This document shows positions 49,978-64,000 of a stretch of DNA of 64,000 nt, piece by piece. Every line of letters begins with the position of its first letter. Within the stretch, counting starts at the first letter, position 1. The position numbers and the translations under genes are program-made. The notes below the pieces were generated by a model. It was given only the letters and a program-made list of their open reading frames with translations. It was not told where the DNA came from and ran no database searches. Source of the stretch: a virus. The stretch is from IMG/VR virus record IMGVR_UViG_3300021378_000010, positions 1-64,000 of that record. One strand, written 5' to 3'.

Positions 49978-50643
49978 TTATTCGCCTTTCTGATATGTGG
50001 ATTTAGTATCGATGCCTACAAAGTAAGTGACGTCGTCGCTTTTAAACTCGGAAATACCTTTAGCACAGAGAGTCACGTGGTAGTCACCGGGAAGAAGTTT
50101 TAGATTATCTGTTTTGATAATGATGGTAAATTTGTCGTTCGTTTCACCAATCTCTACACCAAATGTATCAGCAGTTGGATTGGCGCTATCTACCGCACGA
50201 AGGAAGCACTTTCCATCTTCGCCAACGAAAGCAATTTCGCTAAACTGAAGAACACCAGCAGCCTTGAGAACCGACTGCATGTCTTCCCAGGATACATCGA
50301 TTTCAACGTCGTTTGAAGGGATTTTGATTTCTTTATTGGGCGGTGTATGAATCATAGATACATCTGCAAAAACATATTTGGTCTTACGGCGACCTTCAGA
50401 AATTGTAAAGAACTTATCATGAAATTCGACGTCAGGGTTTTGATAAAGACCTACGATCGAAAGGAAACGCGAAAGATCATAAATGCAAGCATCAGATGGA
50501 ATTTCATCTGGAATATTAGCAATTGCAACAAGAGTCTTTTCAGGCGTAATTGTTTTGAGTACATTGCCTTCTGACATCAAAATAGATTTATTGATTGAAG
50601 AGAAGCTTTTGAGGATGGTAAGAGTACGATCAGAAAATTTCAT
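49978..50643 (-). CDS. Sliding clamp gp45
   Basis: MKFS-x-x-T-x-x-ILK-x-F-x-x-IN-x-SI...A-x-I...IYDL-x-x-FL...NLKLLPGDY-x-V. Synteny 45-44-62-regA. Confidence 0.93.
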   Translation of the reverse strand: MKFSDRTLTILKSFSSINKSILMSEGNVLKTITPEKTLVAIANIPDEIPSDACIYDLSRFLSIVGLYQNPDVEFHDKFFTISEGRRKTKYVFADVSMIHTPPNKEIKIPSNDVEIDVSWEDMQSVLKAAGVLQFSEIAFVGEDGKCFLRAVDSANPTADTFGVEIGETNDKFTIIIKTDNLKLLPGDYHVTLCAKGISEFKSDDVTYFVGIDTKSTYQKGE

Positions 50644-50666
50644 AGTGTATAACACTCCTTTTGTGG

Positions 50667-51811: not shown

Positions 51812-52429
51812 CTATAAGTCGTTTTCAATACGAACAATTTTTTGCATTCTCAAGACATCAGCTAAAACATCCCAAGCGCTGTCGTGTTCAACAAATACCT
51901 TTGCCCAATGCGCTTCGTCATCTACTGGAATAAAGCCATTCTTTTTTGGAAAATCGAGTTTAGCATCGATGTAAGTTCGAATGTCTCGCACTTTCCAATG
52001 AGGAAAATATTGCTTGAACATTTCATTTTTTCCTTCAGCAGCAAAAATACGGTCAAGGATTACTGGATCAAACGTATTTGATCGAGACCACCAGTAATCA
52101 ATTTTTCCAAAATCGTTAAGATAAGAAACAAGTTGAGTGATGAATTCCTTTACTGTAAGATCGTCTTTTCTAGGAACAATATTTTTTCGTGCATCGCTTG
52201 GCAAAGACTGCCACCACTCTACAGTATCTTTATATACCACCCAGTCGTAATTGTCAACCTGATTTTTCACTGAAAGCTTAAATTTTTTCACGAGTGATAT
52301 ATCTTCAGCCGAATAAGGTTTGTTTGAAACAAACTTTTCAGTATCTACTACGATAAATGAAAAGTCAACTACTGCGCAATTTTGTGCAGGCTGTCCGAGA
52401 GTTTCGCAGTCAATAAAACAATGCTTCAT
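51812..52429 (-). CDS. DEDD 3'-5' exonuclease (DexA-like)
   Basis: IDCETLG, W-x-R-x-x-x-FD, RDIRT and H-D-x-x-x-D. Confidence 0.82.
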   Translation of the reverse strand: MKHCFIDCETLGQPAQNCAVVDFSFIVVDTEKFVSNKPYSAEDISLVKKFKLSVKNQVDNYDWVVYKDTVEWWQSLPSDARKNIVPRKDDLTVKEFITQLVSYLNDFGKIDYWWSRSNTFDPVILDRIFAAEGKNEMFKQYFPHWKVRDIRTYIDAKLDFPKKNGFIPVDDEAHWAKVFVEHDSAWDVLADVLRMQKIVRIENDL

Positions 52430-53652
52430 GTCATAAAATCCGTCAAATCTGTGTTACTTTCTTTTTCTCTGATTGCACCATTGAGATTGCTTTGAATCAT
52501 GTATGATGCACGTTCCATTGGTCGTTCTCCATTGATCGTAGCAAGTACTTCAGTCGCCATGTCTTTCGCAGTTTTGAATGGAACATTTTGACAAATATGG
52601 TTTATGTTCTTTCTTTCGTCAAGAAGTTCATAATCTTGAGGAAGACCCATAATCGTCATTGCTTCTCGAAAGTTGATATAGCGATCTTCGAGATGGTGTG
52701 TTACTACGAAAGGCATGTGTACTACAAACGCACCGATGTGATCTACTGGAATTAGCGTTCCGCGCATCATTACACCTTTACCACTTGTCAACTTTGCATG
52801 TCGACGATCGCACCGATCTGCTTCTCTATCAAGACCTTGCGATCTCATCCACTTACCGACTTGATCATAATTAATACCTTGTTCGAGCATCTCTCCTTCA
52901 ACATTATATGAAGGTCTTGTATGATCTTTTACAGAAGCAGCAAAGTCAACGTGACTCATACCACCTTTAATCTCAGTGAGATAAAAACGATAGTATGGAT
53001 CGTCTTGAGAAGGAATTTTTTTATTGATTGGCTCGACTTGAAAGTTACTCTTTACGCTTTCAAGCAGTTCACGGATAGTTGGATACTGCGTATTAAACCT
53101 GCTAAAAACTGGAACAGAATTATCAAAAGCGTCTCTACGCCAGAAGAAGTAAAATGTTCTACGACGGATCTGAGGAGAACCATGAAGAAGAGATTTAGTC
53201 ACATAAATTGTCATATTGTATCCAGCTGCATCACTAATCTGACGCAACTTGTCTCGCATAAATTTACCGACATTAGTAGCAAGTGCAGGTGCGTTTTCAC
53301 CCCAAAGAACTTTTGGACGAACGTTTTCTAAAACGTGCCGTGTAGTCTTTTCCATCCATTGGTTATTTTGATTGTGTTCTCCATAACTTTTATGATAAGA
53401 ACTAAGTCCTGCGCAAGGACATACTGAAGAAACTACGTCTACTGATTCTGTCGTAATTGGCGCATTCTCGCTATCAAGTACATGATAAGGAATGTCATAG
53501 CCGTCCTTTCTGTAATGGTTCAATAGATGCTGTTCGTTTGACGCGAATGCACCATAGCTCATAATATATTCTGGCTTTACGCCATACGCTTCATCTGAAG
53601 CAAGTAGTTCACCGCCAATAAGCGGCACAATTCCTGCATGTTTTATTGTCAT
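52426..53652 (-). CDS. DNA cytosine-C5 methyltransferase-fold protein with degenerate SAM-binding motif I
   Basis: Motif IV CPCAGLS, VI GENAP, VIII HGSPQIRRRTFY, IX REAMTIMGLP, X CQNVP. Motif I reads IVPLIGG instead of FxGxGG. Confidence 0.8.
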   Translation of the reverse strand: MTIKHAGIVPLIGGELLASDEAYGVKPEYIMSYGAFASNEQHLLNHYRKDGYDIPYHVLDSENAPITTESVDVVSSVCPCAGLSSYHKSYGEHNQNNQWMEKTTRHVLENVRPKVLWGENAPALATNVGKFMRDKLRQISDAAGYNMTIYVTKSLLHGSPQIRRRTFYFFWRRDAFDNSVPVFSRFNTQYPTIRELLESVKSNFQVEPINKKIPSQDDPYYRFYLTEIKGGMSHVDFAASVKDHTRPSYNVEGEMLEQGINYDQVGKWMRSQGLDREADRCDRRHAKLTSGKGVMMRGTLIPVDHIGAFVVHMPFVVTHHLEDRYINFREAMTIMGLPQDYELLDERKNINHICQNVPFKTAKDMATEVLATINGERPMERASYMIQSNLNGAIREKESNTDLTDFMT

Positions 53653-53666
53653 TTTTCATCCTTTAA

Positions 53667-54692
53667 TCAAGCGAAGAAATTTTCGATGCTCATAATTTGT
53701 TTTTCAACACCCGTCCAATGCGGGTAATGTTCTCTTGAAAGGTGTATGGATCTTGGTTTTTCCATATAGGCAAAATCAAGTTCATCACGATCATTGAGTA
53801 GATAATCTGTCCATCGGATTATGCTATATTTATATTCGATGTAATCATTGAAATGATCGCGAACTTTTTTTCGCTCTGACCACGATCCCCAGAAAGGTTT
53901 TCCATCATAATAACCAGTTTTAGGAACTACACGGCTCTCGTTTTCAATTGGAAGCAGTTCATAAATCTTTGCTCCAAGTTCACGAGCTTGTTCAATATAA
54001 CGATCTGCAAGAGCTTCGGCATTTTTGATCAAATCACCTTCAAGACGGCAGAGATGATGACGAACATCAATATTGCCAAAATAAAACTCAAGTTCTTCAA
54101 CAGCATCTATGTCAACAAAAGACTTAAGACCCTGGTTGAGTGCTCCATTCAAAGTCTTGAATACAGTAGAATTGAAAGACCAACCGGGTCTATACATACA
54201 GATCGCATGACTGTCACCAATCACAAGTTTTTTTGTAGGATTGACGTGATTTACTTTTACGGCTTCACGTTCCATCCTACCCCAGTTGTCAATGTCGAGC
54301 TCATGCCAAATAGGTTCAATGTAGATATTATTTTTCTTTGCGAGTTCAAATTTACGACGGAGTAGTCGTTCATACTCAGGAAAGTCGCAATTCAAACTAT
54401 AAATTGGACCTTTATACTTTGATACCTTTACGACATTTTCTGAATATGGACAGTTTTGAAAGCCACCAAAAATATTCATTGCCGCTGGCTTTGTTCTAGA
54501 AGTTCCGTTATCTGCATGGTACATATAAACAGCATCGTACTCGTTGAGATCTTTGATTCTTCCTTCAAAATCAACTTCAGCATCATGACCAAGTTCTTTC
54601 AGCTGATTGCAGTAAATAACTGCTGGTGATGTTCTGTGCGAGTATACTAAACTCGTGAGAGTATTAGTTGGTGAAACGACTGCAATTTTCAT
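53667..54692 (-). CDS. Beta-glucosyltransferase N-domain-like + SGNH hydrolase/acyltransferase fusion
   Basis: N-half MKIAVV...DLNEYD...NIFGG...KYKGPIYSLNCD resembles the T4 BGT N-domain as recalled. C-half has IGDSH (block I), FGNID (block III) and SIHLS (block V). Confidence 0.55.
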   Translation of the reverse strand: MKIAVVSPTNTLTSLVYSHRTSPAVIYCNQLKELGHDAEVDFEGRIKDLNEYDAVYMYHADNGTSRTKPAAMNIFGGFQNCPYSENVVKVSKYKGPIYSLNCDFPEYERLLRRKFELAKKNNIYIEPIWHELDIDNWGRMEREAVKVNHVNPTKKLVIGDSHAICMYRPGWSFNSTVFKTLNGALNQGLKSFVDIDAVEELEFYFGNIDVRHHLCRLEGDLIKNAEALADRYIEQARELGAKIYELLPIENESRVVPKTGYYDGKPFWGSWSERKKVRDHFNDYIEYKYSIIRWTDYLLNDRDELDFAYMEKPRSIHLSREHYPHWTGVEKQIMSIENFFA

Positions 54693-54704
54693 AATATAAA
54701 TCTC

Positions 54705-55796
54705 CTAGCAAAAAAAGCTGTCAACCGTAGTGCAGCTGAGTCTTGACTCAAGGTCAAGAGCAATTTTATCAAAAGCATCAAACGTAAGAGGCAAAATGCG
54801 TTTTTCTTGAAGCTTTGGTGTATCTTTGATACCAAGAAAACAGTTGAACTGGCAAAATGTAATTTCTGCGCCAAAGGTAGTCATATGGCCATTACGTTCA
54901 AGGTTTTCTGAGTAAAATTTTCTTGCAGTATCATCAGGAAACTCAAAAAAATCATATTGATGACTACGAACTGACATTACGATCTTTTCCATAATATCAT
55001 TTTTATTTAGCTTAACGTTTGGAAATACGAAAGCCATACCACGATGGGCGCCAGGACCGACCAGACAATAGTCATCATCTTCATCAATATTTGGAAGATC
55101 TTCGCACCGAGAAAAGTTACAAGGTGGATGGTAAGAAAAATAAGGTCCAATACCGCGATGAGTTTTTAGCCATTCGCAGACATCGCCAAGAGAGTTTTTA
55201 GGATCTTGTACGACATCGCTCATTCCTAGCTTATCAAGTTGATCCATCCAACGAATCATATGCGATAGTTTGAATTGAACTGTAGGATCATCTTCTTCTT
55301 CACGAACAAAGTTTCGAGCCGCGGTCTGAAGCGAAGTCTGAAGCTGAGTAGCACCCCAAACCTTAAGCTTGCGAATATTATCGTCTAGGTTTCTGTTTAC
55401 AGTTTGATAATAATCACCTTTGAGTCGATATTCATCGAAGTCAATAATCTTAGAATAATCTGCAGTATCTGAAGCTACAAGAGTAAGCGTAGGCATGCCA
55501 ACAAATTTTACCGCCATTGCATTTAGAATTTTGTTACGCATTGAGGTATCTTGACCAAAGACATGATTCTCTAGCCAAAATACCTCAGCGTGTTTAGAAC
55601 GGTTTGGATTCCAATACGAAACTTCTTGACGCATCGCAGATCCAAATTCAGGATCAATCTCATATTCTTCAATCCTGCCGGTTTCACGGAGAGTTTCACG
55701 CTTGAAGAAATCCAAGACCCATTTATTGAAATATTTGAATGCATCTGGATCAGCAATAGACTTGAGTTCGTCTACAGTAAAGATTTCTTTTTTCAT
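54705..55796 (-). CDS. aGPT-Pplase / amino-acid:DNA transferase-like base-modifying enzyme (HhH glycosylase fold)
   Basis: KRE...Y-x-N-x-x-R, HhH motif LKTHRGIGPYFSY, VGPGAHRGM, and E-x-x-x-CQF. Confidence 0.7.
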   Translation of the reverse strand: MKKEIFTVDELKSIADPDAFKYFNKWVLDFFKRETLRETGRIEEYEIDPEFGSAMRQEVSYWNPNRSKHAEVFWLENHVFGQDTSMRNKILNAMAVKFVGMPTLTLVASDTADYSKIIDFDEYRLKGDYYQTVNRNLDDNIRKLKVWGATQLQTSLQTAARNFVREEEDDPTVQFKLSHMIRWMDQLDKLGMSDVVQDPKNSLGDVCEWLKTHRGIGPYFSYHPPCNFSRCEDLPNIDEDDDYCLVGPGAHRGMAFVFPNVKLNKNDIMEKIVMSVRSHQYDFFEFPDDTARKFYSENLERNGHMTTFGAEITFCQFNCFLGIKDTPKLQEKRILPLTFDAFDKIALDLESRLSCTTVDSFFC

Positions 55797-55799
55797 ATT

Positions 55800-56183
55800 T
55801 TATTTCTCCGTTAAGTCATGTTGTAGCATGACTATATTTATGCTAGGCATAATCTTCCGAATTTCTTCTGCTTGAATAGGATCATCTTCAAAGTGAATAC
55901 CAAAACGATATCCCATTTCTTCAAGATAAAACAGTGTACGACCTTTATGCTGCCCAGATGATTTACGAGTTTTTTCGTCAAATTTCAGTGGGTTCATGTA
56001 TACTGTATTATAGATTCCACGATTTGTCAACATATTTTTTGTAACTTCGCCTTCATCATCACGAGAACGTCCAGTAATGATTACGTCGTCGGGCCCGGGA
56101 AAGACGCCCGTAAAGGCGTCTCCCATGTAAATAACTCCATCAATATCAAAAGAATTGATAACTTTGTTAGGAATATCATTCAT
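55800..56183 (-). CDS. HAD-superfamily phosphatase (cap-less)
   Basis: FDIDGV (DxD), ITGRS, K and FEDD motifs I-IV. Start ATG 56183 overlaps the MIPS stop by 8 nt. Confidence 0.8.
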   Translation of the reverse strand: MNDIPNKVINSFDIDGVIYMGDAFTGVFPGPDDVIITGRSRDDEGEVTKNMLTNRGIYNTVYMNPLKFDEKTRKSSGQHKGRTLFYLEEMGYRFGIHFEDDPIQAEEIRKIMPSINIVMLQHDLTEK

Positions 56184-57471
56184 AGTCTGTCTTCCCATCT
56201 TGGTATGTGTAAGGAAGATTTTTTGCAATTGGCTTTTCAGCAGCAAGCTGTGGTCGGGTCATTGAAGTAAGTTCACGGCGAGCAAGCGCATCGCATTCAA
56301 ACTTTGCATCAGATGAAGAAAGTTGTACAGGCGGCGTCTTCTGCGTATACGCGCTAGGCCCACGAAGAATTCCAACAATACCCATTTCAGAAGCTACTCG
56401 ACAGAAGCGAACGGCAGAAATAACTACACCACTCGAGTTTGGCGAGTCCTGGCAAGAAAGTCGAGCTTGAAGTGTATAACGAGCACCACCAAAGCCAAAC
56501 GCTACGATGTCAAGATCTGCAATTTTATTATCAGAACCAACATACGTTCCACCAGGCTTCTGAAGAACTGTCAACGAAGGACCTGCATAAAGTGTGTCAC
56601 CAGCATAGCTTACACCACGAACGGTATTTTGACCCTTGAGAACGTTTTCCTTTGAAATATGTTTATTATGAAGACGTTCTTTTTCAGCCATATTGATGAA
56701 GTCAGTATTTGAAGTAACACCAGAACGAATATGTTCTTTACCCTGAGTAGCACCACCGATGCGATTTGTTTGAGTATGATATGTTACATGCAGGCCGCCG
56801 TCAATCATCGCACCTTGTAGAACTTCAGACAAGCGGGATGCACCCCAAGCAGATCGCATATCAGAACCAACAAAAGTAAGACCAGCATCGATAAAGCGCT
56901 GCTCAATTTTCTGAGTTTCTTTAGTATCAATAATTGTTGGAATACAGTTTACGAAGTGTACTCCAGCTTTCAAAGCAACATCGATATAGAAACGAGTTGC
57001 TTTTTCAGAACCAACAGGAAGATAATTGACAAGGACTTCAACTCCGGTCTTTTTTACCAATTCAACAATATCATCAAATGATTTTGCAGCTTCAGCACCA
57101 GTTCTGAACGAAACTTCTTCAGGATAGTATTCCATCCATTCTGCAACACCATCGAGTGTCGGGCTAGAGTAAACCATTGCGCCCTTCGTAACTGCGCCTG
57201 GAGAATTACCACCAGTTTCAAGAATCTCCGCAACGTGATCCATAGCACAGTTTGGTGAAGCACGAAGAGCTTCTACAAGAGGCTTGTTAACCTTACGGCG
57301 ATCTACATCAAATCCAATGACGAACTCGACGTCACCCGAAACATATCCGCCAATTTCTGGATACATCAGGCCAACTTTATCATTCGGGTTTTCATTATAG
57401 TATTGCACACCCTCTACGATAGATTTAGCGCAGTTACCCACACCAATAATACCAATTTTGATCTTTTTCAT
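56176..57471 (-). CDS. ino1: myo-Inositol-1-phosphate synthase
   Basis: GVGNCAKS, FDVD-x-x-KV, LVNYLPVGSE, FVNCIP, GSDMRS-x-x-GA, NTDF-x-NM, K-x-ISK, DNK, DSPNS-x-GV and K-x-PP, as in the bacterial/archaeal MIPS family. Confidence 0.92.
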   Translation of the reverse strand: MKKIKIGIIGVGNCAKSIVEGVQYYNENPNDKVGLMYPEIGGYVSGDVEFVIGFDVDRRKVNKPLVEALRASPNCAMDHVAEILETGGNSPGAVTKGAMVYSSPTLDGVAEWMEYYPEEVSFRTGAEAAKSFDDIVELVKKTGVEVLVNYLPVGSEKATRFYIDVALKAGVHFVNCIPTIIDTKETQKIEQRFIDAGLTFVGSDMRSAWGASRLSEVLQGAMIDGGLHVTYHTQTNRIGGATQGKEHIRSGVTSNTDFINMAEKERLHNKHISKENVLKGQNTVRGVSYAGDTLYAGPSLTVLQKPGGTYVGSDNKIADLDIVAFGFGGARYTLQARLSCQDSPNSSGVVISAVRFCRVASEMGIVGILRGPSAYTQKTPPVQLSSSDAKFECDALARRELTSMTRPQLAAEKPIAKNLPYTYQDGKTDYE

Positions 57472-57589
57472 TTGATTTTCCTTTTCTGTTATATCAGTTT
57501 AACGACTATATTTGGCCGGAAGGTCCGGGGTAGGTCGAGTGCAATCCAGCACTAAGGTTACCATCAGTCTAGATGGTGTTGTATTTATA
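57472..57589 (-). promoter_or_regulatory. Late promoter and structured 5' leader of the MIPS operon
   Basis: TATAAATA at 57582-57589, followed by hairpins ACCATC/GATGGT, AGTGC/GCACT and CGAC..CCGG/CCGG..GTCG before the AAGGA RBS. Confidence 0.5.
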
Positions 57590-57596
57590 GCCGAAC

Positions 57597-58682
57597 TCAA
57601 GCAAACATATCAAAAATTGTAGTTTCTTTGGTATTTTTTTGTCTGTCAATTGTTTGCTCAAACATATTCTGCAAAGACTTAATCCAATTTTCTTTTGAGT
57701 GCTTTTGTTTTGTGAGTTCAGATATTGCTATACGTTCATTATAATCCAAAGCCAGTAATTTGTCAACAACTTCTTTAAATGCAGCAGGACGAATATTTGA
57801 ACGAACTTTTGCAAGATGTTCTGGTTTTGCTGGAATACATTCAGAAGCGTGAGTATCTTTCGTATCAGTTGCTAATACTACAGGAACGCCTCGTGCAAGT
57901 GCTTCCAAAGCGGTAATACCCCAAGTTTCTGCAGGACATGTCGAAAAATAAACACGAGAACGAGCAAGCTTTTCCATGACATCTTTATGAGGAAGATTTT
58001 CAATTGTGTCCTGTGGATGTTTCCAGTGTTGATTAATATTGTAGTAATGTTTATTGGTAGCATCAACAAGGTTACTTGTTGTAGTCAGAATCAAACTGTG
58101 ATAGTTGTTTGAATGAGATAACTTGTGGTTCATATAAGGATTTTTGATTCTATTCATTCGTGCAATAGTCGTGATGTCATATTCCAGATCTTTGTATACT
58201 GGTTCATCACCATTACAAAACGCAGCGTTGATAAATCCGCCATTTAAATTAAGAGGGCATTCGTTGATACGCTGCGAAAGCTTATCCATGCCTTGAAATT
58301 GCCATGGGCTTACCATTGCAAGAGTACCACCCGTATCAATAAATTCTTTCATTTTTTCAATATGAAGAACTTTGCTAATTCCACCGGCAGCGGTATGACT
58401 AACCCATAAAATGGGAATGTTAAATACTTTTCGTATATTTCCAATTAGCGTATTACTATCGAAGTTTACCATCAGTACATCAGGATCATGCTGAATGATA
58501 GCTTGAGAAAGTTTTGTAGTTGTTCTACGCTTTTTGCGATCTTCTTCATTATAATAAAATGGAATCACTTCGCCAGGAAAATTCTGATAGATCAGTTGAA
58601 TAAAACGCTCAATGCCACCAGAAACGTGTGGACTGTCAAGATCATGCTCGTCAGTCATAAAAAATGGAATTAGTACTTTCAT
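57597..58682 (-). CDS. GT-B (GT4-like) glycosyltransferase
   Basis: SGGIERF at the N-terminus, AR-x-x-x-x-KN, and ETWGITALEALARGVPVV (E-x7-E motif). Confidence 0.85.
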   Translation of the reverse strand: MKVLIPFFMTDEHDLDSPHVSGGIERFIQLIYQNFPGEVIPFYYNEEDRKKRRTTTKLSQAIIQHDPDVLMVNFDSNTLIGNIRKVFNIPILWVSHTAAGGISKVLHIEKMKEFIDTGGTLAMVSPWQFQGMDKLSQRINECPLNLNGGFINAAFCNGDEPVYKDLEYDITTIARMNRIKNPYMNHKLSHSNNYHSLILTTTSNLVDATNKHYYNINQHWKHPQDTIENLPHKDVMEKLARSRVYFSTCPAETWGITALEALARGVPVVLATDTKDTHASECIPAKPEHLAKVRSNIRPAAFKEVVDKLLALDYNERIAISELTKQKHSKENWIKSLQNMFEQTIDRQKNTKETTIFDMFA

Positions 58683-59326
58683 ATTTTTACCTCATAATGT
58701 AACCGCCAATCTTCATATTCCTCGTCAAGAGTAACCCATTGGCATTTTGTATTTGTATGATTTGCTTCTTTGTTCCAAACTATCCAGCAATAAGCAATCA
58801 TGCCACCAATTTGGTCATTCTTATTTATGGGTTCTATATGATCGGCACTAAATTTTACTCTGTCTGACATGAATATTATATCACTTGGAGGGTTATTTGT
58901 AAACAATTTTTTTCTCTTTTTTCCTTCGAGAAAAGTAATACGAACAAACATTGCAACAAAATCATATTCATTGACAGCTTTTTCTGCTATTTTTCGAGGA
59001 AGATCTTGATGATATGGCGGATTTGTTACCAGGCCTTTTGCGTCAGAAGGTTTCTGAAGACTCATAAAGTCTGTATCAACAGTTATTGCGCATAGGCTAT
59101 TATCATACTCGTGAAGATCATAAGAACGAACATCATAACCGTGACGAAGCAGCTCAATAGATATGTTACCACGTCCAGCACAAGGCTCAACGATAACATG
59201 AGGTAGATTGACATATTTTTGTAAAACATAAGTTGCGAGTGGTGGTGTTGGATAAAAATCATTTTTTCTGCGGTTTGTATCTGTTTTTTTTACACCAACG
59301 TAAATATCTTTGAGATTATTGGCCAT
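58679..59326 (-). CDS. Amino (N6-A/N4-C) DNA methyltransferase-like protein
   Basis: DFYPTP, EPCAGRG, D-x-DF and TNPPY. Probable start ATG 59326. Confidence 0.75.
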   Translation of the reverse strand: MANNLKDIYVGVKKTDTNRRKNDFYPTPPLATYVLQKYVNLPHVIVEPCAGRGNISIELLRHGYDVRSYDLHEYDNSLCAITVDTDFMSLQKPSDAKGLVTNPPYHQDLPRKIAEKAVNEYDFVAMFVRITFLEGKKRKKLFTNNPPSDIIFMSDRVKFSADHIEPINKNDQIGGMIAYCWIVWNKEANHTNTKCQWVTLDEEYEDWRLHYEVKI

Positions 59327-60152
59327 ATCTAATATTTTGTTCCTTTTCACGATCGTCTAGTTTATACTCAGATCTATAACGAGAGTTAACGCTAATAACT
59401 TCTTCAAGTACAGAAAGATATACACCATTGAGTTTTGAAAAGGCAGAAATCGCGGCAGTATCCTTTGGAAAACAGCTTCCTCCAAAACCTCTTTTTCCGT
59501 CGGGTCCTGGAACCTTTGTGTGAGAATGTCCAATACGATCATCTTCTCCTATGGATCTAGAAACAACATTATATCGAGCATCGAGTGATTCTGTAAGTTC
59601 TTTCCATTGATTAAACCAAACAACTTTCATTGCAAGAAATGAATTGATCCCATATTTTACAAGACTTGCCTCAACTGGTGTCATGTAATGAAATGGTGCA
59701 GGATTGCAGTTTGAATTATACGTGTAAAGATCTTTTACCTTTTCTATGCGATGGATGTCTCCGCCAAGTACATGAAAATCTGGTTTCAAAAAATCTTCTA
59801 ACGCGTTTCTTTCTGTGAGAAATTCTGGGTTGTATACAAAATGATTATTATAACAAATTTCTTCTATTACGTCTGGTGTAATAGTCGACTTTACGATGAT
59901 TGTTGCATCTATATCACTCAGTTGATCCACAACAGTAGTTATGATATTTTTGTTTATCGAACCATCGTCATTCATCGGTGTTGGCACGCAAACAAATACA
60001 AACTCTGGATTAAAAGAAATCATTTCATCTATATCATGATGGCCCTTATAAGGATCTACAATCATAATGTCGTTGGTTTTGTTACGAAACCCAAATTCTA
60101 CAGCGTTTCCAACAAAGCCATAGCCTATAATTGCTATTTTTGTTTTATTCAT
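59316..60152 (-). CDS. UDP-glucose/GDP-mannose dehydrogenase family protein (short, lacks C-terminal domain)
   Basis: IIGYGFVG, FVCVPTP, KSTI-x-P, NPEFL-x-E, K-x-x-x-N-x-FLA-x-KV, D-x-RIG and GFGGSCFPKD. Confidence 0.88.
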   Translation of the reverse strand: MNKTKIAIIGYGFVGNAVEFGFRNKTNDIMIVDPYKGHHDIDEMISFNPEFVFVCVPTPMNDDGSINKNIITTVVDQLSDIDATIIVKSTITPDVIEEICYNNHFVYNPEFLTERNALEDFLKPDFHVLGGDIHRIEKVKDLYTYNSNCNPAPFHYMTPVEASLVKYGINSFLAMKVVWFNQWKELTESLDARYNVVSRSIGEDDRIGHSHTKVPGPDGKRGFGGSCFPKDTAAISAFSKLNGVYLSVLEEVISVNSRYRSEYKLDDREKEQNIRYGQ

Positions 60153-60621
60153 TTTCAAAGGCCCAGTGACGTTCGTTCATGTAAGTAAGCAATACGCCAG
60201 TTTCCTGATACATCGGCTTTGAAAGGTCGTTCCACTGAGTCTGCCACTTCTCAGGAGCATGCTCAGGATGCGTGATCACGACTCGTTTGATACCGGATTG
60301 GACAACATTCTTTGTACACTCAGCACAGACCGGTAGACCCCAAACATAAATCGTCGCATCCTTGACTGATACACCACTGTAGAGCGCATTCATCAATGCG
60401 TTCATCTCACCATGAACGATCAATGGATATTTCTGTTCACGATCGTTAAGACGCTCATCTGTATCTTCAATACCGCGAGGAAACCCGTTGTAGCCAGTCG
60501 CGAGGATGCGACGCTCATCATTTACAATCACTGCTCCGATGCGCGTGCTCGGATCCTTACTCCAGGTCGAGATCTCACGAGCAAGTTTCATAAAGCGGTT
60601 GTCCCACTTGGAGTTAATCAT
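60145..60621 (-). CDS. dCMP deaminase
   Basis: SKDPST-x-IGAVIV, GYNGFPRG, HGE-x-NA and PVCAEC zinc motifs. Confidence 0.92.
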   Translation of the reverse strand: MINSKWDNRFMKLAREISTWSKDPSTRIGAVIVNDERRILATGYNGFPRGIEDTDERLNDREQKYPLIVHGEMNALMNALYSGVSVKDATIYVWGLPVCAECTKNVVQSGIKRVVITHPEHAPEKWQTQWNDLSKPMYQETGVLLTYMNERHWAFENE

Positions 60622-61276
60622 TCATAAGCTCCTCAATGAACTTGAAGTGGCGCTCGTAGACGTGCAAGTTAGTCGCAGTCCAAATTAGATCACCAACCGC
60701 AACATTGAGATCTGCGGCAAGCATCTTTTGAACATGCATCGCCCAATGTACGTCGTTGTCATATCCAAACACAGCATCGTTGGATCGCATTAGGTAGTGA
60801 CTAATGAGCTTACCATCGCGTATCATAAAGGTGTTTGCGTATGTGCAGACGAAGTCAGACATACCATCTGCGCAGTAGTCGGTATGCATAGACGGGCGAT
60901 TGTAGATCATAACGGCACGACGACTGTTCGGGTTCTTCTGCAGCTCAGTCTTTACGTTTTCGTACTGACTGCCGTTTTCTTCTGACCAGATCAGATAGCC
61001 GTAGTTAGAATTGATCATGCCGTTAGAGTCAGATACTTGTTTCCAGATGGCAGGCGTATCACCAGGAATGTCTTCAACGTAACGAGACTGCGACTCATAC
61101 CACTGGAGTTCGCGTTCGATATATTCATAGTTTGGTTTGCGGATGATCCAATCCTCATCAGCAATAAACGACTCACCGATAAGCTCGATGGTCTTAACTC
61201 CGGTCTTATCAGTCACGAAATCCTGTTCTTTGTATTTTTGAATGAGCTTAGCTCGAATATCACTTACTGTTTGCAT
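60614..61276 (-). CDS. dCMP hydroxymethylase (T4 gp42-like, thymidylate synthase fold)
   Basis: Colinear with T4 gp42 as recalled: DKTGVKTIE, RELQWY, DIPG-x-TP-x-IW, INSNYG, SRR-x-x-MIY-x-RPSM, DGMSDF-x-CT, MRSND-x-VFG-x-x-ND and LHVY-x-RHF. The cytosine-specifying Asp (ND) is retained. Confidence 0.9.
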   Translation of the reverse strand: MQTVSDIRAKLIQKYKEQDFVTDKTGVKTIELIGESFIADEDWIIRKPNYEYIERELQWYESQSRYVEDIPGDTPAIWKQVSDSNGMINSNYGYLIWSEENGSQYENVKTELQKNPNSRRAVMIYNRPSMHTDYCADGMSDFVCTYANTFMIRDGKLISHYLMRSNDAVFGYDNDVHWAMHVQKMLAADLNVAVGDLIWTATNLHVYERHFKFIEELMND

Positions 61277-61284
61277 AAATGCTC

Positions 61285-61800
61285 CTATGAATAATTTGAT
61301 ATATTAAGTGATTTGATCTTATTATATAACACGCGATCGTCAATGTCAACAAGAAGTTTGAAGTCTTTCATGAGAAATCCAGCAATAATTCTGCCGTCAT
61401 TAGAATTTCTAATGTTGGAAAACCTGCGCTTACCAAGTGGAGGAGCCTCCCACAACTTAATCGTGGTCTCGTTTTTCATATCAGACGGATTTTGTACAAT
61501 AATCCATCGTTCGGCGTTTAGACACTTATCTAATTGGTTTTGCGCTACTCTACCATCTCGAGTTGTGATAGGAACAGTGAATGCTGGTTCTACATTGCCC
61601 TTTGTAGCATGCGACTTAAAATAATGCCGAATAGTCATGAACTTGACTTCGGTGGTTTTACCATCCACGAGCATATCCATAGACGCATCAAATGGATCTG
61701 TAGCCATTTCTACCACAGACCCAGTTTTTTCAAAATAGTTTTTTACCACATCTTCAGCAAGGTTACCGAGTGATTGAATTTTTTCTTTAATGTCAAACAT
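61285..61800 (-). CDS. PD-(D/E)XK nuclease-like protein
   Basis: LG-x-x-AE-x-x-V...DMLVDGKTTEVK pattern (E...D...E-x-K). Confidence 0.5.
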   Translation of the reverse strand: MFDIKEKIQSLGNLAEDVVKNYFEKTGSVVEMATDPFDASMDMLVDGKTTEVKFMTIRHYFKSHATKGNVEPAFTVPITTRDGRVAQNQLDKCLNAERWIIVQNPSDMKNETTIKLWEAPPLGKRRFSNIRNSNDGRIIAGFLMKDFKLLVDIDDRVLYNKIKSLNISNYS

Positions 61801-62231
61801 CAGGCTTCATCCGGAAGATATGAATTCAAAGTGTAAACCGTAACAGTGTCTTGATCTGACACAATAATGTCATCATCATCTGCAACTGTTGGCCTCTGAA
61901 TTTCTCGGTTAAAGATGTTATGATCGACTAACTGACCAGGAATTTCACCACGGCAGTATGCAACAAAGAAAGATGCATAGTTGATAAGATCTTTTGCACT
62001 ATCTTCAAGACTTTCAAAGTTTGGATCGTATCCATCACTCTGCATAGCTTCCATGACAGATTTCATACGAAGCATTTTTGCATGCATGATGTCATGAATT
62101 GTGATCACACCATTAGGGTAATAGTCTGCTTGTTTGACAGTCGAGTTTGGATTTTGATAGTCACGGCTTTTTCGTAGTTGCAAGTCCATGCATTCTTGTA
62201 GGACTTTGGCTGATTCTGGTTGATTGGTCAT
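61800..62231 (-). CDS. Nucleotide-modification-associated all-alpha domain (Nmad/DUF1599-like, NTP-PPase fold)
   Basis: K-x-x-DY...K-x-x-R...ES-x-x-DS-x-x-DLINY. Start at ATG 62231. Confidence 0.7.
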   Translation of the reverse strand: MTNQPESAKVLQECMDLQLRKSRDYQNPNSTVKQADYYPNGVITIHDIMHAKMLRMKSVMEAMQSDGYDPNFESLEDSAKDLINYASFFVAYCRGEIPGQLVDHNIFNREIQRPTVADDDDIIVSDQDTVTVYTLNSYLPDEA

Positions 62232-62232
62232 A

Positions 62233-62793
62233 TTATACCTCTTCAAGTTTTTCTAAAAATTCTCGTGCGTTTGTTTCGATAGCGTACTTCTTATACTCAG
62301 AAATTATATACAACAATTCTTCAGATGTCAACCTTTTTCCTTCATCAAGAAGAAGGTGAACTCTGCCATTCGAGCCTGCAGAAGCCTCAAGCCATTCAAA
62401 AGTATATCCAAATCGTTCTTTAGACTCAGTGTGAATTTTTGTTTCAAGATTTGAAACATTTTCTTCTGCGCAATACGCGTATCGGATGTAAACTTGAGAA
62501 CGATCAATACCGTTTTGTCGAATGTAACGACTTACGCCGTGCCCACCAGATGGAATGCGAATGGAATAAGTACGGTTCAAAATACTTTTTTCAGACTTTC
62601 CAGTATATCCAATTTTTTGATGAACTAAATTATCACCGATGTCTTCAATGTCGTCAGCAAAAGCAACTTGGTATATACCATGTAAGCCATATTGCTCATT
62701 CATTTCATCATACAAAGGGTTCTTCTCTGTTGGAATCTTCGAGACTTGAAACCAATCTGTTAGGTGAGTTACTTGTATTCCTTTGGTTTTCAT
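62233..62793 (-). CDS. GIY-YIG-like nuclease
   Basis: GIYQV...IGYTGKS...R...E pattern. Confidence 0.5.
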   Translation of the reverse strand: MKTKGIQVTHLTDWFQVSKIPTEKNPLYDEMNEQYGLHGIYQVAFADDIEDIGDNLVHQKIGYTGKSEKSILNRTYSIRIPSGGHGVSRYIRQNGIDRSQVYIRYAYCAEENVSNLETKIHTESKERFGYTFEWLEASAGSNGRVHLLLDEGKRLTSEELLYIISEYKKYAIETNAREFLEKLEEV

Positions 62794-63468: not shown

Positions 63469-63939
63469 TTACTTAAAAATTTCTGGAAGTGATCCATGAT
63501 TGCCATCGTGGCTTGGAGCTTTCCAATCTTCTGGTTTGATTAGATCTGGTAGTCCAAATGGGTTGGGACGGCCCGGTTTTACGCCAGGAGTTTTGATTGA
63601 GTTTGCTTTATAAACTTGATCCCAAGCTACTTTGGTATCTACGCCAAATACATCAAGAGTGCCAATAGCGAAAACACATAGATCAATAAGACCATCTACA
63701 ACTTCTTCAGAATCAACTTTGTCTACGTCACCGATAAAAGCAAAATTTCCTTCATCATTAATTGCAAGTTCAAGGTCAGATGCTTGTGCAGTTTCGATCA
63801 ATTCTTCTAAACACATATTCAAACGAAAAGTAAGATACTTTTTCATAAGATCCTTATCGTGTTTGTTTTTTTCAAACCAGTCGTGCACTCCAAACTTATT
63901 GTGCATCATATACATATCATTGATCATATCAGCTGACAT
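63469..63939 (-). CDS. MazG-like all-alpha nucleoside-triphosphate pyrophosphohydrolase (candidate dCTPase)
   Basis: EEL-x-E and EEVVDGLIDL (E-x-x-E...E-x-x-D metal motifs), plus N-x-x-K...DLIKPEDW. Probable start ATG 63939. Confidence 0.75.
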   Translation of the reverse strand: MSADMINDMYMMHNKFGVHDWFEKNKHDKDLMKKYLTFRLNMCLEELIETAQASDLELAINDEGNFAFIGDVDKVDSEEVVDGLIDLCVFAIGTLDVFGVDTKVAWDQVYKANSIKTPGVKPGRPNPFGLPDLIKPEDWKAPSHDGNHGSLPEIFK

Positions 63940-64000
63940 TTTGTAATCCTTCCATTTCGCTTTCAATAGCTATGATCTCATCCTTAATAGAAAGCTTTAG

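Follow-up and report, generated by a model that had tools for sequence, protein, structure and literature searches.

Why would a phage carry a myo-inositol-3-phosphate synthase (MIPS) in the middle of a run of DNA-modification genes? The gene lies on the minus strand of a 64,000-nucleotide viral sequence (the window; positions 1 to 64,000 of IMG/VR record IMGVR_UViG_3300021378_000010), between 52426 and 61276, where ten co-oriented genes mostly overlap one another. The source is a T4-like, marine phage; we judge it somewhat probable that its cassette is a DNA hypermodification set working on 5-hydroxymethylcytosine (hmC), and we lean, with modest confidence, towards inositol as the unit with which this cassette decorates hmC DNA. 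The inositol-decorated base, predicted from gene context and protein fold, is well supported by gene context. Our literature search found no paper on an inositol-bearing DNA base; if the prediction is right, such a base would be undescribed in the literature found.

Cassette layout and the hmC precursor

All ten reading frames of the predicted tight run are present at the coordinates listed here and below, overlapping or 3-14 nt apart with the sole exception of a 125-nt gap before MIPS. The gene families originally assigned were borne out for nine of the ten; the "UDP-sugar dehydrogenase" proved to be a short form only, without the C-terminal UDP-binding domain. The precursor genes, their neighbours and the promoters are as follows.

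60614..61276, minus strand: dCMP hydroxymethylase of the gp42 type, making hm-dCMP (53% identity to T4 gp42; PDB 1b49, E 1e-72)
60145..60621, minus strand: dCMP deaminase, T4 cd analogue (Pfam dCMP_cyt_deam_1, 3e-21; phrog_174, 7.5e-45)
63469..63966, minus strand: MazG/PRA-PH-type nucleotide pyrophosphohydrolase (Pfam PRA-PH, 3.9e-6; phrog_671, 5e-17)
61800..62246, minus strand: small conserved protein accompanying MazG and gp42, function unassigned (phrog_1485, phrog_18404)
61321..61349, minus strand: perfect sigma-70 consensus promoter before gp42 (TTGACA-17-TATAAT, 12/12 matches; a consensus match only)
57738..57766, minus strand: perfect sigma-70 consensus promoter within the 3' end of the GT-B gene, upstream of MIPS (12/12; a consensus match only)
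57582..57589, minus strand: candidate T4-type late promoter TATAAATA inside the 125-nt gap before MIPS, read from the sequence, which we take to be a match to the T4 late-promoter consensus

The gp42-type enzyme keeps the catalytic Cys144 and the cytosine-specifying Asp175 (C148 and D179 in T4), and the Asp is present in all gp42 homologues from related cassettes; the identity to gp42 and these residues mark the TS-like protein as a genuine dCMP hydroxymethylase. The MazG/PRA-PH-type gene, which precedes gp42 in 53 related loci, likely encodes a dCTPase (gp56 analogue) clearing dCTP. Given a bona fide hydroxymethylase, this pyrophosphohydrolase and the deaminase, the phage DNA is expected to carry hmC, like that of T4, and hmC as the precursor base, as proposed, is upheld by the Asp determinant. 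The small protein adjoins gp42 in 46 loci, and the phrog_18404 profile also spans MazG, implying that fused forms of the two exist elsewhere. Of the nucleotide-pool genes predicted upstream, the MazG-like one stands; for the "Nmad-like" identity of genes near it, a Pfam search gave no support.

A predicted inositol-making pair

56176..57471, minus strand: MIPS (1gr0, E 5e-51; TIGR03450, 3.5e-61)
55800..56183, minus strand: cap-less HAD phosphatase, the MIPS partner (127 aa; DxDGV motif; phrog_415, PNK phosphatase type)

Across 62 distinct phage homologues, conservation reaches at least 97% at each of eight catalytic positions of MIPS (D204, N255, D257, K270, K274, K316, D342 and K378), and these agree with 80 cellular MIPS. 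On this alignment the phage active site is complete, every catalytic residue of the cellular enzyme being kept. The HAD gene begins at a conserved Met, with an 8-nt overlap across the MIPS stop (translationally coupled), and encodes the conserved residues D34, D36, G37, V38, T58, K101, D121 and D122. Among 133 viral loci with a MIPS gene, the two are paired in 127, and HAD also follows MIPS in RP13, Moby and Cr30. The same pair occurs on a Kistimonas chromosome, in a glycolysis operon (enolase-MIPS-HAD-GAPDH-PK-PFK), on the strength of which we count HAD as a small-molecule partner. The viral pairing and the bacterial operon together support the view that MIPS and HAD form one unit, which would convert glucose-6-phosphate to free myo-inositol.

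DNA-acting enzymes with a clamp-type tail

54705..55796, minus strand: P8, AADT-like DNA base transferase of helix-hairpin-helix type (Pfam HMUDK_hel PF18723, 9.6e-9; clamp tail TVDSFFC)
53667..54692, minus strand: P9, two-domain enzyme, N-terminal Rossmann-like and C-terminal SGNH (clamp tail SIENFFA)
52426..53652, minus strand: C5-cytosine-methyltransferase-fold enzyme, C5MT (PF00145, 2.4e-16; clamp tail DLTDFMT)
49978..50655, minus strand: gp45 sliding clamp, a context gene (phrog_223, 2.6e-70; Pfam gp45-slide_C)

P8 resembles AADT enzymes by fold and motif. Its predicted model (pLDDT 92) matches the AADT enzyme PUGT gp46 (Foldseek prob 0.99; VIA Z 8.4), and its invariant motif E311-x3-C315-Q is shared, as ExxxCQ, with Pfam-ADDT proteins of Caulobacter phage Cr30 and contig L043; for a protein built wholly of helices, structural matches at Z 8-9 are of middling strength, and the Pfam family is HMUDK_hel, not ADDT. 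In the P9 model (pLDDT 89), the SGNH domain finds matches up to Z 11.7 and carries GDSH, GNID and His317, with invariant residues found in P9 homologues, and the N-terminal domain is weakly T4-BGT-like (1qkj, Foldseek prob 0.99). In Aeromonas phages, P9 is fused to P8. C5MT retains intact PC, ENA and QxRxR motifs with invariant residues; its N-terminal cofactor region is divergent, and alignment of the family profile with M.HaeIII and M.HhaI is confined to motifs IV-VIII and IX-X. It accompanies gp42 and P9 even in loci without MIPS. A search of 100.5 kb, from a record that is about 48% complete, turned up neither a hydroxymethylpyrimidine DNA kinase nor an activating enzyme of any other recognised kind.

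The phage DNA polymerase gp43 (contig positions 64131-66668, just beyond the window) ends in NTIEDFFA. Among 284 ORFs, this tail is shared by P8, P9, C5MT and GT-B alone, bar two short, probably spurious ORFs, and it is kept in homologues of the four; HAD is without it. From these C-termini, the four enzymes with the tail are presumed to dock on the gp45 clamp.

Accessory genes

59316..60158, minus strand: short NDP-sugar dehydrogenase, UGDH-like (280 aa; GxGxxG and GGSCFPKD present, C-terminal UDP-binding domain absent)
58679..59350, minus strand: small amino-methyltransferase, EPCAGRG ... NPPY (phrog_799, 3e-41; motifs read from the sequence)
57597..58682, minus strand: GT-B glycosyltransferase (Pfam Glycos_transf_1, 4e-7; clamp-type tail TIFDMFA)

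The short UGDH covers positions 77-298 of the 413 in TIGR03026 and scores 147 bits, under the 189.8 cut-off; homologues occur in phages SP-15, LIS04, CP21 and C48C1 and, among MIPS loci, only in L017. The NPPY protein, probably an N6-adenine DNA methyltransferase and accessory, is limited to the closest relatives (L004-L006 and L015), the same loci that are the only other MIPS cassettes with the GT-B, which likely adds sugar on DNA as an accessory enzyme; the great majority of MIPS cassettes are without it. The three genes had been proposed as members of the system. By their distribution in few relatives, they are a lineage-specific insert outside the conserved core.

Distribution and alternative explanations

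As had been anticipated, MIPS-HAD-P8 is linked to gp42 across phages: MIPS-HAD-P8-P9(-C5MT) accompanies it, and the core set gp42-cd-MIPS-HAD-P8-P9-C5MT is found, on about 100 marine IMG/VR viral contigs. At least four shuffled gene orders (L033, L094, L100/L103, L128-L131) imply that the set itself is conserved, not synteny alone, although the majority of loci belong to T4-like phages related to one another, and locus counts therefore do not equal independent events. Among P9 loci, P8 is present where MIPS-HAD is present and absent where the pair is absent.

The pair also travels in other company, recurring next to AADT/HMUDK_hel enzymes in phage lineages that are unrelated. Cultured Caulobacter phage Cr30 and about 14 contigs hold TET/JBP-(FkbM or GT)-ADDT-MIPS-HAD-P-loop kinase 3 clusters, in which MIPS-HAD sits exactly between AADT transferase and DNA kinase; some TET/JBP-AADT-MIPS loci also hold GT-B-like genes. 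The non-T4-like Ralstonia phage RP13, whose DNA is reported to be heavily modified and refractory to standard sequencing methods (PMC12686479, PMC13697223), has HMUDK_hel ... MIPS-HAD ... HMUD2 kinase. Finally, 7-deazaguanine clusters (Menderavirus; Moby, L020, L039) contain MIPS-HAD without an AADT-like gene, so AADT-type coupling is not the sole use of the pair. The supposed tie of MIPS-HAD to hmC is therefore not sustained: its presence in hmU-type and 7-deazaguanine clusters suggests a portable kit.

Could MIPS-HAD instead be an auxiliary metabolic module, making inositol for a non-DNA use (osmolyte, drain on host glucose-6-phosphate, precursor of lipid or of surface or virion glycan), placed in a T4-like early/replication region that gathers cargo genes, while P8, P9 and C5MT put something else on hmC? 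The Kistimonas pair is plainly metabolic, the nearest cellular relatives of the phage enzyme are ordinary MIPS, e.g. from Bacteroidota (43-47% identity to the closest), P9 and C5MT occur with gp42 but without MIPS in some loci, P8/P9 occur without MIPS in Aeromonas phages, and the deazaguanine clusters have no AADT-like enzyme. Nevertheless, we consider this explanation rather unlikely, as MIPS-HAD lies directly beside base-modification genes in every inspected locus with enough flanking sequence, keeps such neighbours in RP13, falls between transferase and kinase in the TET/JBP loci, co-varies with P8 and retains its gene company through several rearrangements of order. The Aeromonas phages have a Na+/solute symporter gene alongside their fused P9-P8, a hint that the co-substrate is a free small molecule.

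Macromolecular substrates are common among cap-less HADs, and the best PHROG of this one is of the polynucleotide kinase/phosphatase type. Both points would suit inositol-3-phosphate as the nucleophile, with the phosphate, after coupling to the base, either trimmed by the HAD on DNA or retained in the final base, as in the phosphate-bearing hypermodifications of SP-15, Carin-5 and YerA41 (PMC12686479). However, this HAD is also the companion of MIPS in a bacterial glycolysis operon without DNA-modification genes, as fits a small-molecule phosphatase, and it does not bear the tail of the cluster's DNA-acting enzymes; we find this route improbable. The first steps of mycothiol synthesis are mirrored by MIPS, a GT4-type GT-B and a phosphatase. 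Even so, and although phage DNA glycosyltransferases are reported to resemble MshA structurally (bioRxiv 10.1101/2023.12.21.572611), it is very improbable that inositol or its phosphate is no DNA adduct but a glycosyl acceptor for an MshA-like GT-B, with HAD dephosphorylation yielding a soluble glycosyl-inositol, since the GT-B is missing from most MIPS cassettes and carries the clamp-type tail.

A model for inositol attachment to hmC

What stands of the original prediction is the hmC precursor, the MIPS-HAD unit and its linkage to gp42 and AADT/HMUDK_hel; the exclusive tie to hmC and the membership of GT-B, UGDH and methyltransferase fall away. On inositol as the decorating unit, we propose the following model. 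The tailed enzymes would follow the fork on the gp45 clamp, acting on fresh hmC-DNA. P8, working in the AADT manner through its Glu/Cys pair, may attack the pyrimidine C6, assisted by the C5MT-like enzyme, and expel the 5-CH2 substituent so that an exocyclic methylene forms, to which an inositol hydroxyl would then add; the expected product is an inositol-O-methyl-cytosine ether. Through its SGNH domain, P9 could O-acylate hmC to create the leaving group, in place of the absent DNA kinase, or else O-acylate the finished adduct. In this sub-lineage the GT-B, perhaps supplied by the short UGDH, would attach one more sugar, which might be a uronic acid, and the NPPY methyltransferase would be a separate adenine methylase.

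Comparison with known systems

The C5MT motifs (catalytic PC, ENV-like, QxRxR, and the motif IX-X region) are those of M.HhaI and M.HaeIII, and their retention implies Cys attack at C6. Unlike for these enzymes, C5 is already taken in the expected substrate, no alignment links the N-terminal cofactor region to solved methyltransferases, and the protein bears a clamp-type tail and keeps company with gp42. In vitro, C5-methyltransferases can join thiols to hmC when SAM is absent, behaviour that would suit a transferase.

MIPS shares its NAD-binding motif and all catalytic Asp, Lys and Asn residues with M. tuberculosis Ino1 (PDB 1GR0), and a phosphatase follows, as inositol monophosphatase does in cells. 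In contrast to the cellular pathway, the enzyme is phage-encoded within base-modification operons, its NCBIfam score is far under the equivalog cut-off (207 vs 638 bits), and its phosphatase partner, at 127 aa, belongs to the cap-less HADs rather than to the IMPase family.

In the T4 hmC pathway, with its alpha- and beta-glucosyltransferases and arabinosyl variants in RB69 and DLP3 (PMC6024577, PMC13326640), gp42, a dCTPase-like enzyme and cd likewise sit in the replication module, and cytosine is decorated after replication. As in the arabinose pathway (sugar phosphate, HAD phosphatase, free sugar), the phage would supply the decorating unit. The P9 N-domain weakly resembles the BGT acceptor domain, but the SGNH domain takes the place of the donor-binding half, and the conserved core has neither a nucleotide-sugar donor nor an Agt/Bgt homologue. 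Because inositol lacks an anomeric carbon, an NDP-sugar-derived glycoside is ruled out as the bond.

Another close parallel is thymidine hypermodification by 5-hmdU DNA kinase with AADT or aGPT-Pplase in ViI, M6, PaMx11, PhiW-14 and SP10, where the AADT mechanism is documented, including a hydroxyl nucleophile, used by ViI gp247 (Lee et al., PMC8989533). That system acts, and this cassette would act, post-replicatively on a pyrimidine 5-hydroxymethyl group in DNA, through a helical, helix-hairpin-helix-like transferase with a Glu/Cys pair (in P8, ExxxCQ and the PUGT gp46 fold match) and a free small-molecule nucleophile, and the relatives Cr30, L043 and RP13 hold the full kinase-plus-AADT set around MIPS-HAD. 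The differences are that the base here is hmC rather than hmU, and is produced by gp42 ahead of replication; that no DNA kinase was found and P8 is HMUDK_hel, not ADDT; that the SGNH-type P9 and the C5-methyltransferase fold have no counterpart there; and that the nucleophile would be a cyclitol from dedicated phage genes rather than a host-pool amino acid or polyamine. The ViI serine:DNA transferase places a serine hydroxyl on hmU much as, we propose, an inositol hydroxyl is placed on hmC here.

Results

The ten minus-strand ORFs between 52426 and 61276 overlap or lie 3-14 nt apart, the single larger gap being the 125 nt that precede the gene for myo-inositol-3-phosphate synthase (MIPS). An exonuclease gene, the gp45 clamp gene and the gp44/62 loader genes follow downstream in that order, and the cluster therefore belongs to a T4-type replication module. 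The source record is a viral contig of 100.5 kb from IMG/VR, about 48% complete; when the cluster was compared by megablast with 50,697 phage records, nothing matched. Nearly all gene assignments of the original prediction were borne out by searches of Pfam, PHROG, NCBIfam and PDB sequences: the dCMP deaminase (cd), the GT-B transferase, MIPS and the C5-methyltransferase-fold protein (C5MT) each score above their Pfam cut-off, the amino-methyltransferase carries EPCAGRG and NPPY motifs, and the MazG-like gene upstream encodes a MazG/PRA-PH pyrophosphohydrolase. The label "Nmad-like", given to a second upstream gene, was not confirmed. The features on which the analysis turns are as follows.

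62303-62331, minus strand: sigma-70 consensus promoter, perfect match (12/12), upstream of the cluster
61321-61349, minus strand: sigma-70 consensus promoter, perfect match (12/12), before gp42
60614-61276, minus strand: gp42, dCMP hydroxymethylase
59316-60158, minus strand: UGDH, short NDP-sugar dehydrogenase
57738-57766, minus strand: sigma-70 consensus promoter, perfect match (12/12), before MIPS
57582-57589, minus strand: late-promoter-like box TATAAATA, read from the sequence
54705-55796, minus strand: P8, HMUDK_hel protein resembling amino-acid:DNA transferases (AADT, aGPT-Pplase)
53667-54692, minus strand: P9, SGNH protein with a tentative BGT-N-like half
52426-53652, minus strand: C5MT

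The three promoters and the late-like box suggest two putative transcription units, with MIPS, the HAD phosphatase gene that follows it, P8, P9 and C5MT on both early and late transcripts.

Which base would the cluster modify? The hydroxymethylase is 53% identical to T4 gp42 and aligns end to end with PDB entry 1b49 (E 1e-72). Within its thymidylate-synthase fold the catalytic cysteine (T4 C148) is aligned, and is invariant in 72 homologues, while Asp175 occupies the position of T4 D179, which sets cytosine specificity and is Asn in thymidylate synthases. Every gp42 of the gp42-type MIPS cassettes described below has the Asp; Asn is found at that site only in the ordinary thymidylate synthase genes of phages Cr30, 44RR and RP13. 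Since both the catalytic Cys and the cytosine-selecting Asp are kept, the phage makes hm-dCMP and not hm-dUMP. A Lee-type thymidine system based on 5-hydroxymethyluracil (hmU), first suspected from cd and the HMUDK_hel domain, is ruled out by the same Asp determinant.

MIPS has the NAD-binding GxGxxA motif and, aligned to 1gr0, the catalytic Asp/Lys/Asn set. The sites matching D197, K284, D310 and K346 of the Mycobacterium tuberculosis enzyme, which we take to be functionally important, show 97% conservation or more across 62 distinct homologues from phages, and so do both ISK lysines, the NxDF motif and the NAD motif; of 80 cellular MIPS, at least 79 have the identical residue at each of the eight catalytic positions checked. 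An altered active site, considered on account of an Arg replacing Lys in GSDMRS, was rejected, the Arg being ordinary variation that recurs in 23 of the 80 cellular sequences. The closest cellular enzymes, at 43-47% identity, include those of Bacteroidota and Saccharibacteria. The match to Pfam Inos-1-P_synth scores 36.7 bits (cut-off 27), and that to the NCBIfam mycothiol_INO1 equivalog TIGR03450 scores 207 bits, far under the cut-off of 638. The HAD reading frame most likely starts at a conserved Met at 56183, giving an 8-nt overlap with the MIPS stop, and conservation across 35 homologues is 95% or higher for its motifs I-IV (DxDGV, T, K, DD; residues D34, D36, G37, V38, T58, K101, D121 and D122). 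Of 133 viral loci, 127 have HAD after MIPS. A MIPS-HAD pair 47-48% identical to that of the phage lies on the chromosome of an uncultured Kistimonas (locus L146, 6402-13792), within an enolase-GAPDH-pyruvate kinase-PFK operon, where the HAD copy (48% identical) again follows MIPS; this setting fits a small-molecule inositol-phosphate phosphatase. The tie between HAD and MIPS in viral loci, together with the Kistimonas operon, points to free myo-inositol as the likely product of the two enzymes.

The sole Pfam match of P8 is HMUDK_hel (PF18723); the Pfam ADDT family (PF18724) is not matched by P8, and is matched by the proteins that adjoin MIPS in Cr30 and in locus L043. P8 contains no P-loop or Walker A motif, and a kinase function was discarded. 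Its structural model (pLDDT 92) has a helix-hairpin-helix-glycosylase-like fold, for which the top Foldseek match is PUGT gp46 of phage PaMx11, a 5-PmdU glycinyltransferase of the AADT kind (8z2m/8z2n; probability 0.99, E 0.075). Alignment of the two with VIA-align gave Z 8.4 and rmsd 4.7 over 240 residues, a middling Z for an all-helical protein and one tied with those for helix-hairpin-helix DNA glycosylases and DUF2419. Against PDB sequences, P8 alone matched nothing and its family profile gave spurious antibody matches only. All 46 P8 homologues have E311 and C315-Q316, and this ExxxCQ motif returns in a fusion protein of Aeromonas phage 44RR and, as ESIYCQ and ESHLCQ, in the Cr30 and L043 proteins that match Pfam ADDT. 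A conserved Cys and a neighbouring Glu form the catalytic pair of AADT enzymes (PMC8989533). The RP13 protein called aGPT-Pplase in the literature is a full-length HMUDK_hel match. Searches for a DNA kinase (PF18751, PF18747) or a TET/JBP protein found none in the 100.5 kb of this record, which is about 48% complete.

P9 was predicted to be a BGT-N/SGNH fusion, and the SGNH half of that assignment stands: in the model (pLDDT 89) the C-terminal domain aligns with carbohydrate esterases and O-acetyltransferases at Z up to 11.7, and G159-D160-S161-H162 (block I), G206-N207-I208-D209 (block III) and H317 are invariant, with E311...H317 in place of the usual DxxH spacing. The other half is tentative, since the likeness of the Rossmann-like N-domain to T4 beta-glucosyltransferase (1qkj; probability 0.99, E 1e-3, TM 0.28) comes through Foldseek only. 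The T4 enzyme binds UDP-glucose in its C domain, whereas the C-terminal half of P9 is the SGNH domain and not a nucleotide-sugar domain. P9 alone matched nothing among PDB sequences.

C5MT scores 60.5 bits against PF00145 (cut-off 22) and retains P79-C80 (motif IV), E119-N120-A121 (VI), Q161/R163/R165 (VIII) and Q355-N356-V357 (X) as invariant residues. The motif I position reads IPLIGGE, in contrast to the canonical SAM-binding FxGxG, and the alignment of the family profile with M.HhaI and M.HaeIII covers only the part from just before motif IV through to X. PDB sequences gave no match to C5MT alone, and an ESM Atlas search with it retrieved viral C5-methyltransferase clusters only.

The remaining three genes, UGDH, the NPPY methyltransferase and GT-B, are an insert and not part of the core, being present only in the nearest relatives of the window (L004-L006 and L015; UGDH in L017). 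GT-B had no match among phage records. The original assignment of UGDH as a UDP-sugar dehydrogenase holds for the GxGxxG motif and the GGSCFPKD cysteine; the C-terminal UDP-binding domain is missing, the protein consisting of N-terminal and central domains only, ending about 40 aa after GGSCFPKD and scoring under the NCBIfam subfamily cut-off. This phage-specific short form also occurs in SP-15, LIS04, CP21-type Campylobacter phages and C48C1, and SP-15 DNA carries glucuronolactone (PMC12686479). In C48C1 (L250, 8030-9930) the short UGDH adjoins a nucleotide-sugar epimerase in the replication module. A reading of the protein designated MTaseA as an FkbM-type O-methyltransferase was dropped, as no similarity was found.

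Four of the cluster's enzymes share a C-terminal tail with the phage DNA polymerase gp43, an 845-aa family-B enzyme encoded just outside the window (contig 64131-66668). The ends read TVDSFFC in P8, SIENFFA in P9, DLTDFMT in C5MT and TIFDMFA in GT-B, against NTIEDFFA in gp43. A motif scan of the 284 ORFs of the contig found the tail, (S/T)xL/I-E/D-x-F-F/M-x, in seven: the four enzymes, gp43 and two short ORFs, one nested in the polymerase gene, which are probably spurious. Homologues of all four enzymes in about 100 contigs keep it as (S/T)LE(D/E)FF; gp42, cd, MIPS and HAD lack it. The C-terminal peptide of the T4 and RB69 polymerases is the part that binds the gp45 clamp, and the gp45 gene lies four genes downstream of C5MT. 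In its simplest reading, this looks like clamp recruitment of the four tailed enzymes to newly replicated DNA.

How widely is the MIPS-HAD pair distributed, and in what company? Scans of IMG/VR, with neighbours classed by iterated HMMs, found 164 loci with the window's MIPS, 49 more with that of RP13 and 2 more with that of Cr30; most are from related T4-like phages, and the counts overstate independence. The loci fall into four settings. The gp42 type, in about 100 contigs, has the order (MazG-x)-gp42-cd-MIPS-HAD-P8-(FkbM methyltransferase)-P9-C5MT, with rearrangements in several lineages to MIPS-HAD-P9-P8-gp42, gp42-cd-P9-MIPS-HAD-P8, gp42-P9-MIPS-HAD-FkbM-P8-C5MT-MazG and P9-HAD-MIPS-FkbM-P8. 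The TET/JBP type, seen in about 14 contigs and in Caulobacter phage Cr30, which is in culture, reads TET/JBP-(FkbM, GT-B or TAGT-like)-ADDT-MIPS-HAD-P-loop nucleotide kinase 3. Ralstonia phage RP13, which is not T4-like, has HMUDK_hel, MIPS, HAD and an HMUD2 kinase, in that order with other genes between; its DNA is reported to be too heavily modified for standard sequencing (PMC12686479, PMC13697223). In the 7-deazaguanine type, found in Stenotrophomonas Menderaviruses and several contigs, the pair lies amid FolE/DpdA/QueC/QueE clusters whose order varies by lineage, with no AADT-like gene nearby (Stenotrophomonas phage Moby, L002, 8171-13585; L020; L039). A whole gp42-cd-MIPS-HAD-P8-P9-C5MT cassette was also seen on a 10-kb contig of the MAG 'Planctomycetaceae bacterium TMED10' (L145, NHBP01000004.1), which is almost certainly phage sequence that binning wrongly assigned to a bacterium.

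Loci found through P9 show that P8 travels with the inositol genes: it is present with MIPS-HAD and absent without them, while gp42, P9 and C5MT stay. In L235 (5009-8004) and L242 (4863-8041) the MIPS-HAD-P8 slot is filled by three genes of about 387, 330 and 290 aa, for which a Pfam search returned nothing, and in L246 (5652-7774) by a PLP enzyme and a gene of the 387-aa type. P9 is retained in all three loci, gp42 in L235 and L246, and C5MT in L235; the slot genes may be an alternative side-chain module. Among T4-like Aeromonas phages of the hmC type, 44RR2.8t (L084, 6408-10388) and avDM9-HANS (L144, 2877-6882) have gp42, no MIPS and a P9-P8 fusion of about 800 aa, directly preceded by an SSF Na+/solute symporter that may import a co-substrate in place of its synthesis. 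P9 stands alone in Aeromonas phage 25 (L143, 1776-5047), after a UDP-galactopyranose mutase and an unannotated 358-aa protein, which hints at a galactofuranose-type decoration of hmC (5-hydroxymethylcytosine) in Tulaneviruses. The rearranged orders, the TET/JBP, RP13 and deazaguanine contexts, and the co-variation of P8 are the independent lines of evidence in this survey.

A separate observation concerns the cultured, unannotated Pseudoalteromonas phage vB_Psh_XG4 (L249, 100-6580), where gp42 and ORFs of 559, 414 and 368 aa are followed by a C5MT-like gene (E 2e-70 to the C5MT family) without the clamp tail. It offers a culturable system for the role of the C5-methyltransferase fold in hmC phages.

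Discussion

We consider it possible, if not quite probable, that MIPS and HAD form a portable inositol kit that provides the cyclitol side chain for three or more chemically different routes of phage base modification (hmC made by gp42, hmU made by TET/JBP or thymidylate synthase enzymes, and 7-deazaguanine), that cyclitol nucleobases are a widespread, undescribed class of DNA hypermodification in phages from the sea, from soil and of clinical hosts, and that the hmC branch works without a kinase, through a clamp-tethered trio of SGNH, AADT-like and repurposed C5MT proteins. For the cassette of the window itself, the likeliest course is that the clamp-bound enzymes turn hmC into an inositol adduct after replication.

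How might the hydroxymethyl group be activated? It is conceivable that the SGNH domain of P9 O-acylates hmC and so creates a leaving group; many structural neighbours of P9 are O-acetyltransferases or esterases acting on sugar hydroxyls. Another candidate is C5MT, whose PC/ENA/QxRxR machinery would be suited to attack at C6 of cytosine and would have no ordinary substrate in hmC DNA. Equally, P9 could decorate the finished adduct. In the sub-lineage of the window, GT-B and the short UGDH may attach a sugar, perhaps a uronic acid.

On the main rival view, MIPS-HAD is cargo with a metabolic role that has nothing to do with DNA. The Kistimonas pair sits among glycolytic genes, and the presence of the pair in deazaguanine clusters without an AADT-like gene means that the uses of the kit are not all accounted for. 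In the gp42-type loci the kit is inherited as a set with P8, P9 and C5MT, which bear the polymerase tail. We regard the cargo explanation as unlikely, albeit well above negligible.

What would an inositol base imply? If the proposal of a cyclitol side chain is correct, a carbocyclic polyol on phage DNA would be a new natural nucleobase adduct besides sugars, amino acids and polyamines, and a base common in the ocean virome, given the many marine contigs with the cassette. Such a base would matter for how these phages withstand restriction, CRISPR and nucleases directed at glycosyl-hmC, and for how far sequencing is biased against them. AADT-type chemistry would also extend to cytosine without a kinase, the C5-methyltransferase fold would gain a new function, and modification enzymes would be recruited by the replication clamp. 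The same kit is carried by cultured phages, namely Caulobacter phage Cr30, the Stenotrophomonas Menderaviruses and Ralstonia phage RP13, in the last of which a modification is known to exist. Full-text searches of the literature for inositol or MIPS together with phage DNA modification, hypermodification, deazaguanine or hmC returned no paper describing such a base, and recent work on T-dioxygenase/AADT/kinase neighbourhoods makes no mention of an inositol link (PMC13229309).

The template for the predicted coupling of hmC to inositol by P8 is the AADT chemistry of phage ViI and others. In that mechanism a Cys adds at C6, the leaving group on the 5-CH2 is lost to give an exocyclic methylene, and an amine or hydroxyl then adds (PMC8989533); ViI gp247 uses a hydroxyl nucleophile (PMC8989533). 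The TET/JBP-type and RP13 clusters include a DNA kinase, whereas none accompanies the cassette of the window in the 100.5 kb of its 48%-complete record. As a post-replicative substitution at a 5-hydroxymethylpyrimidine the system would be of a kind already known; the product would open a new chemical class.
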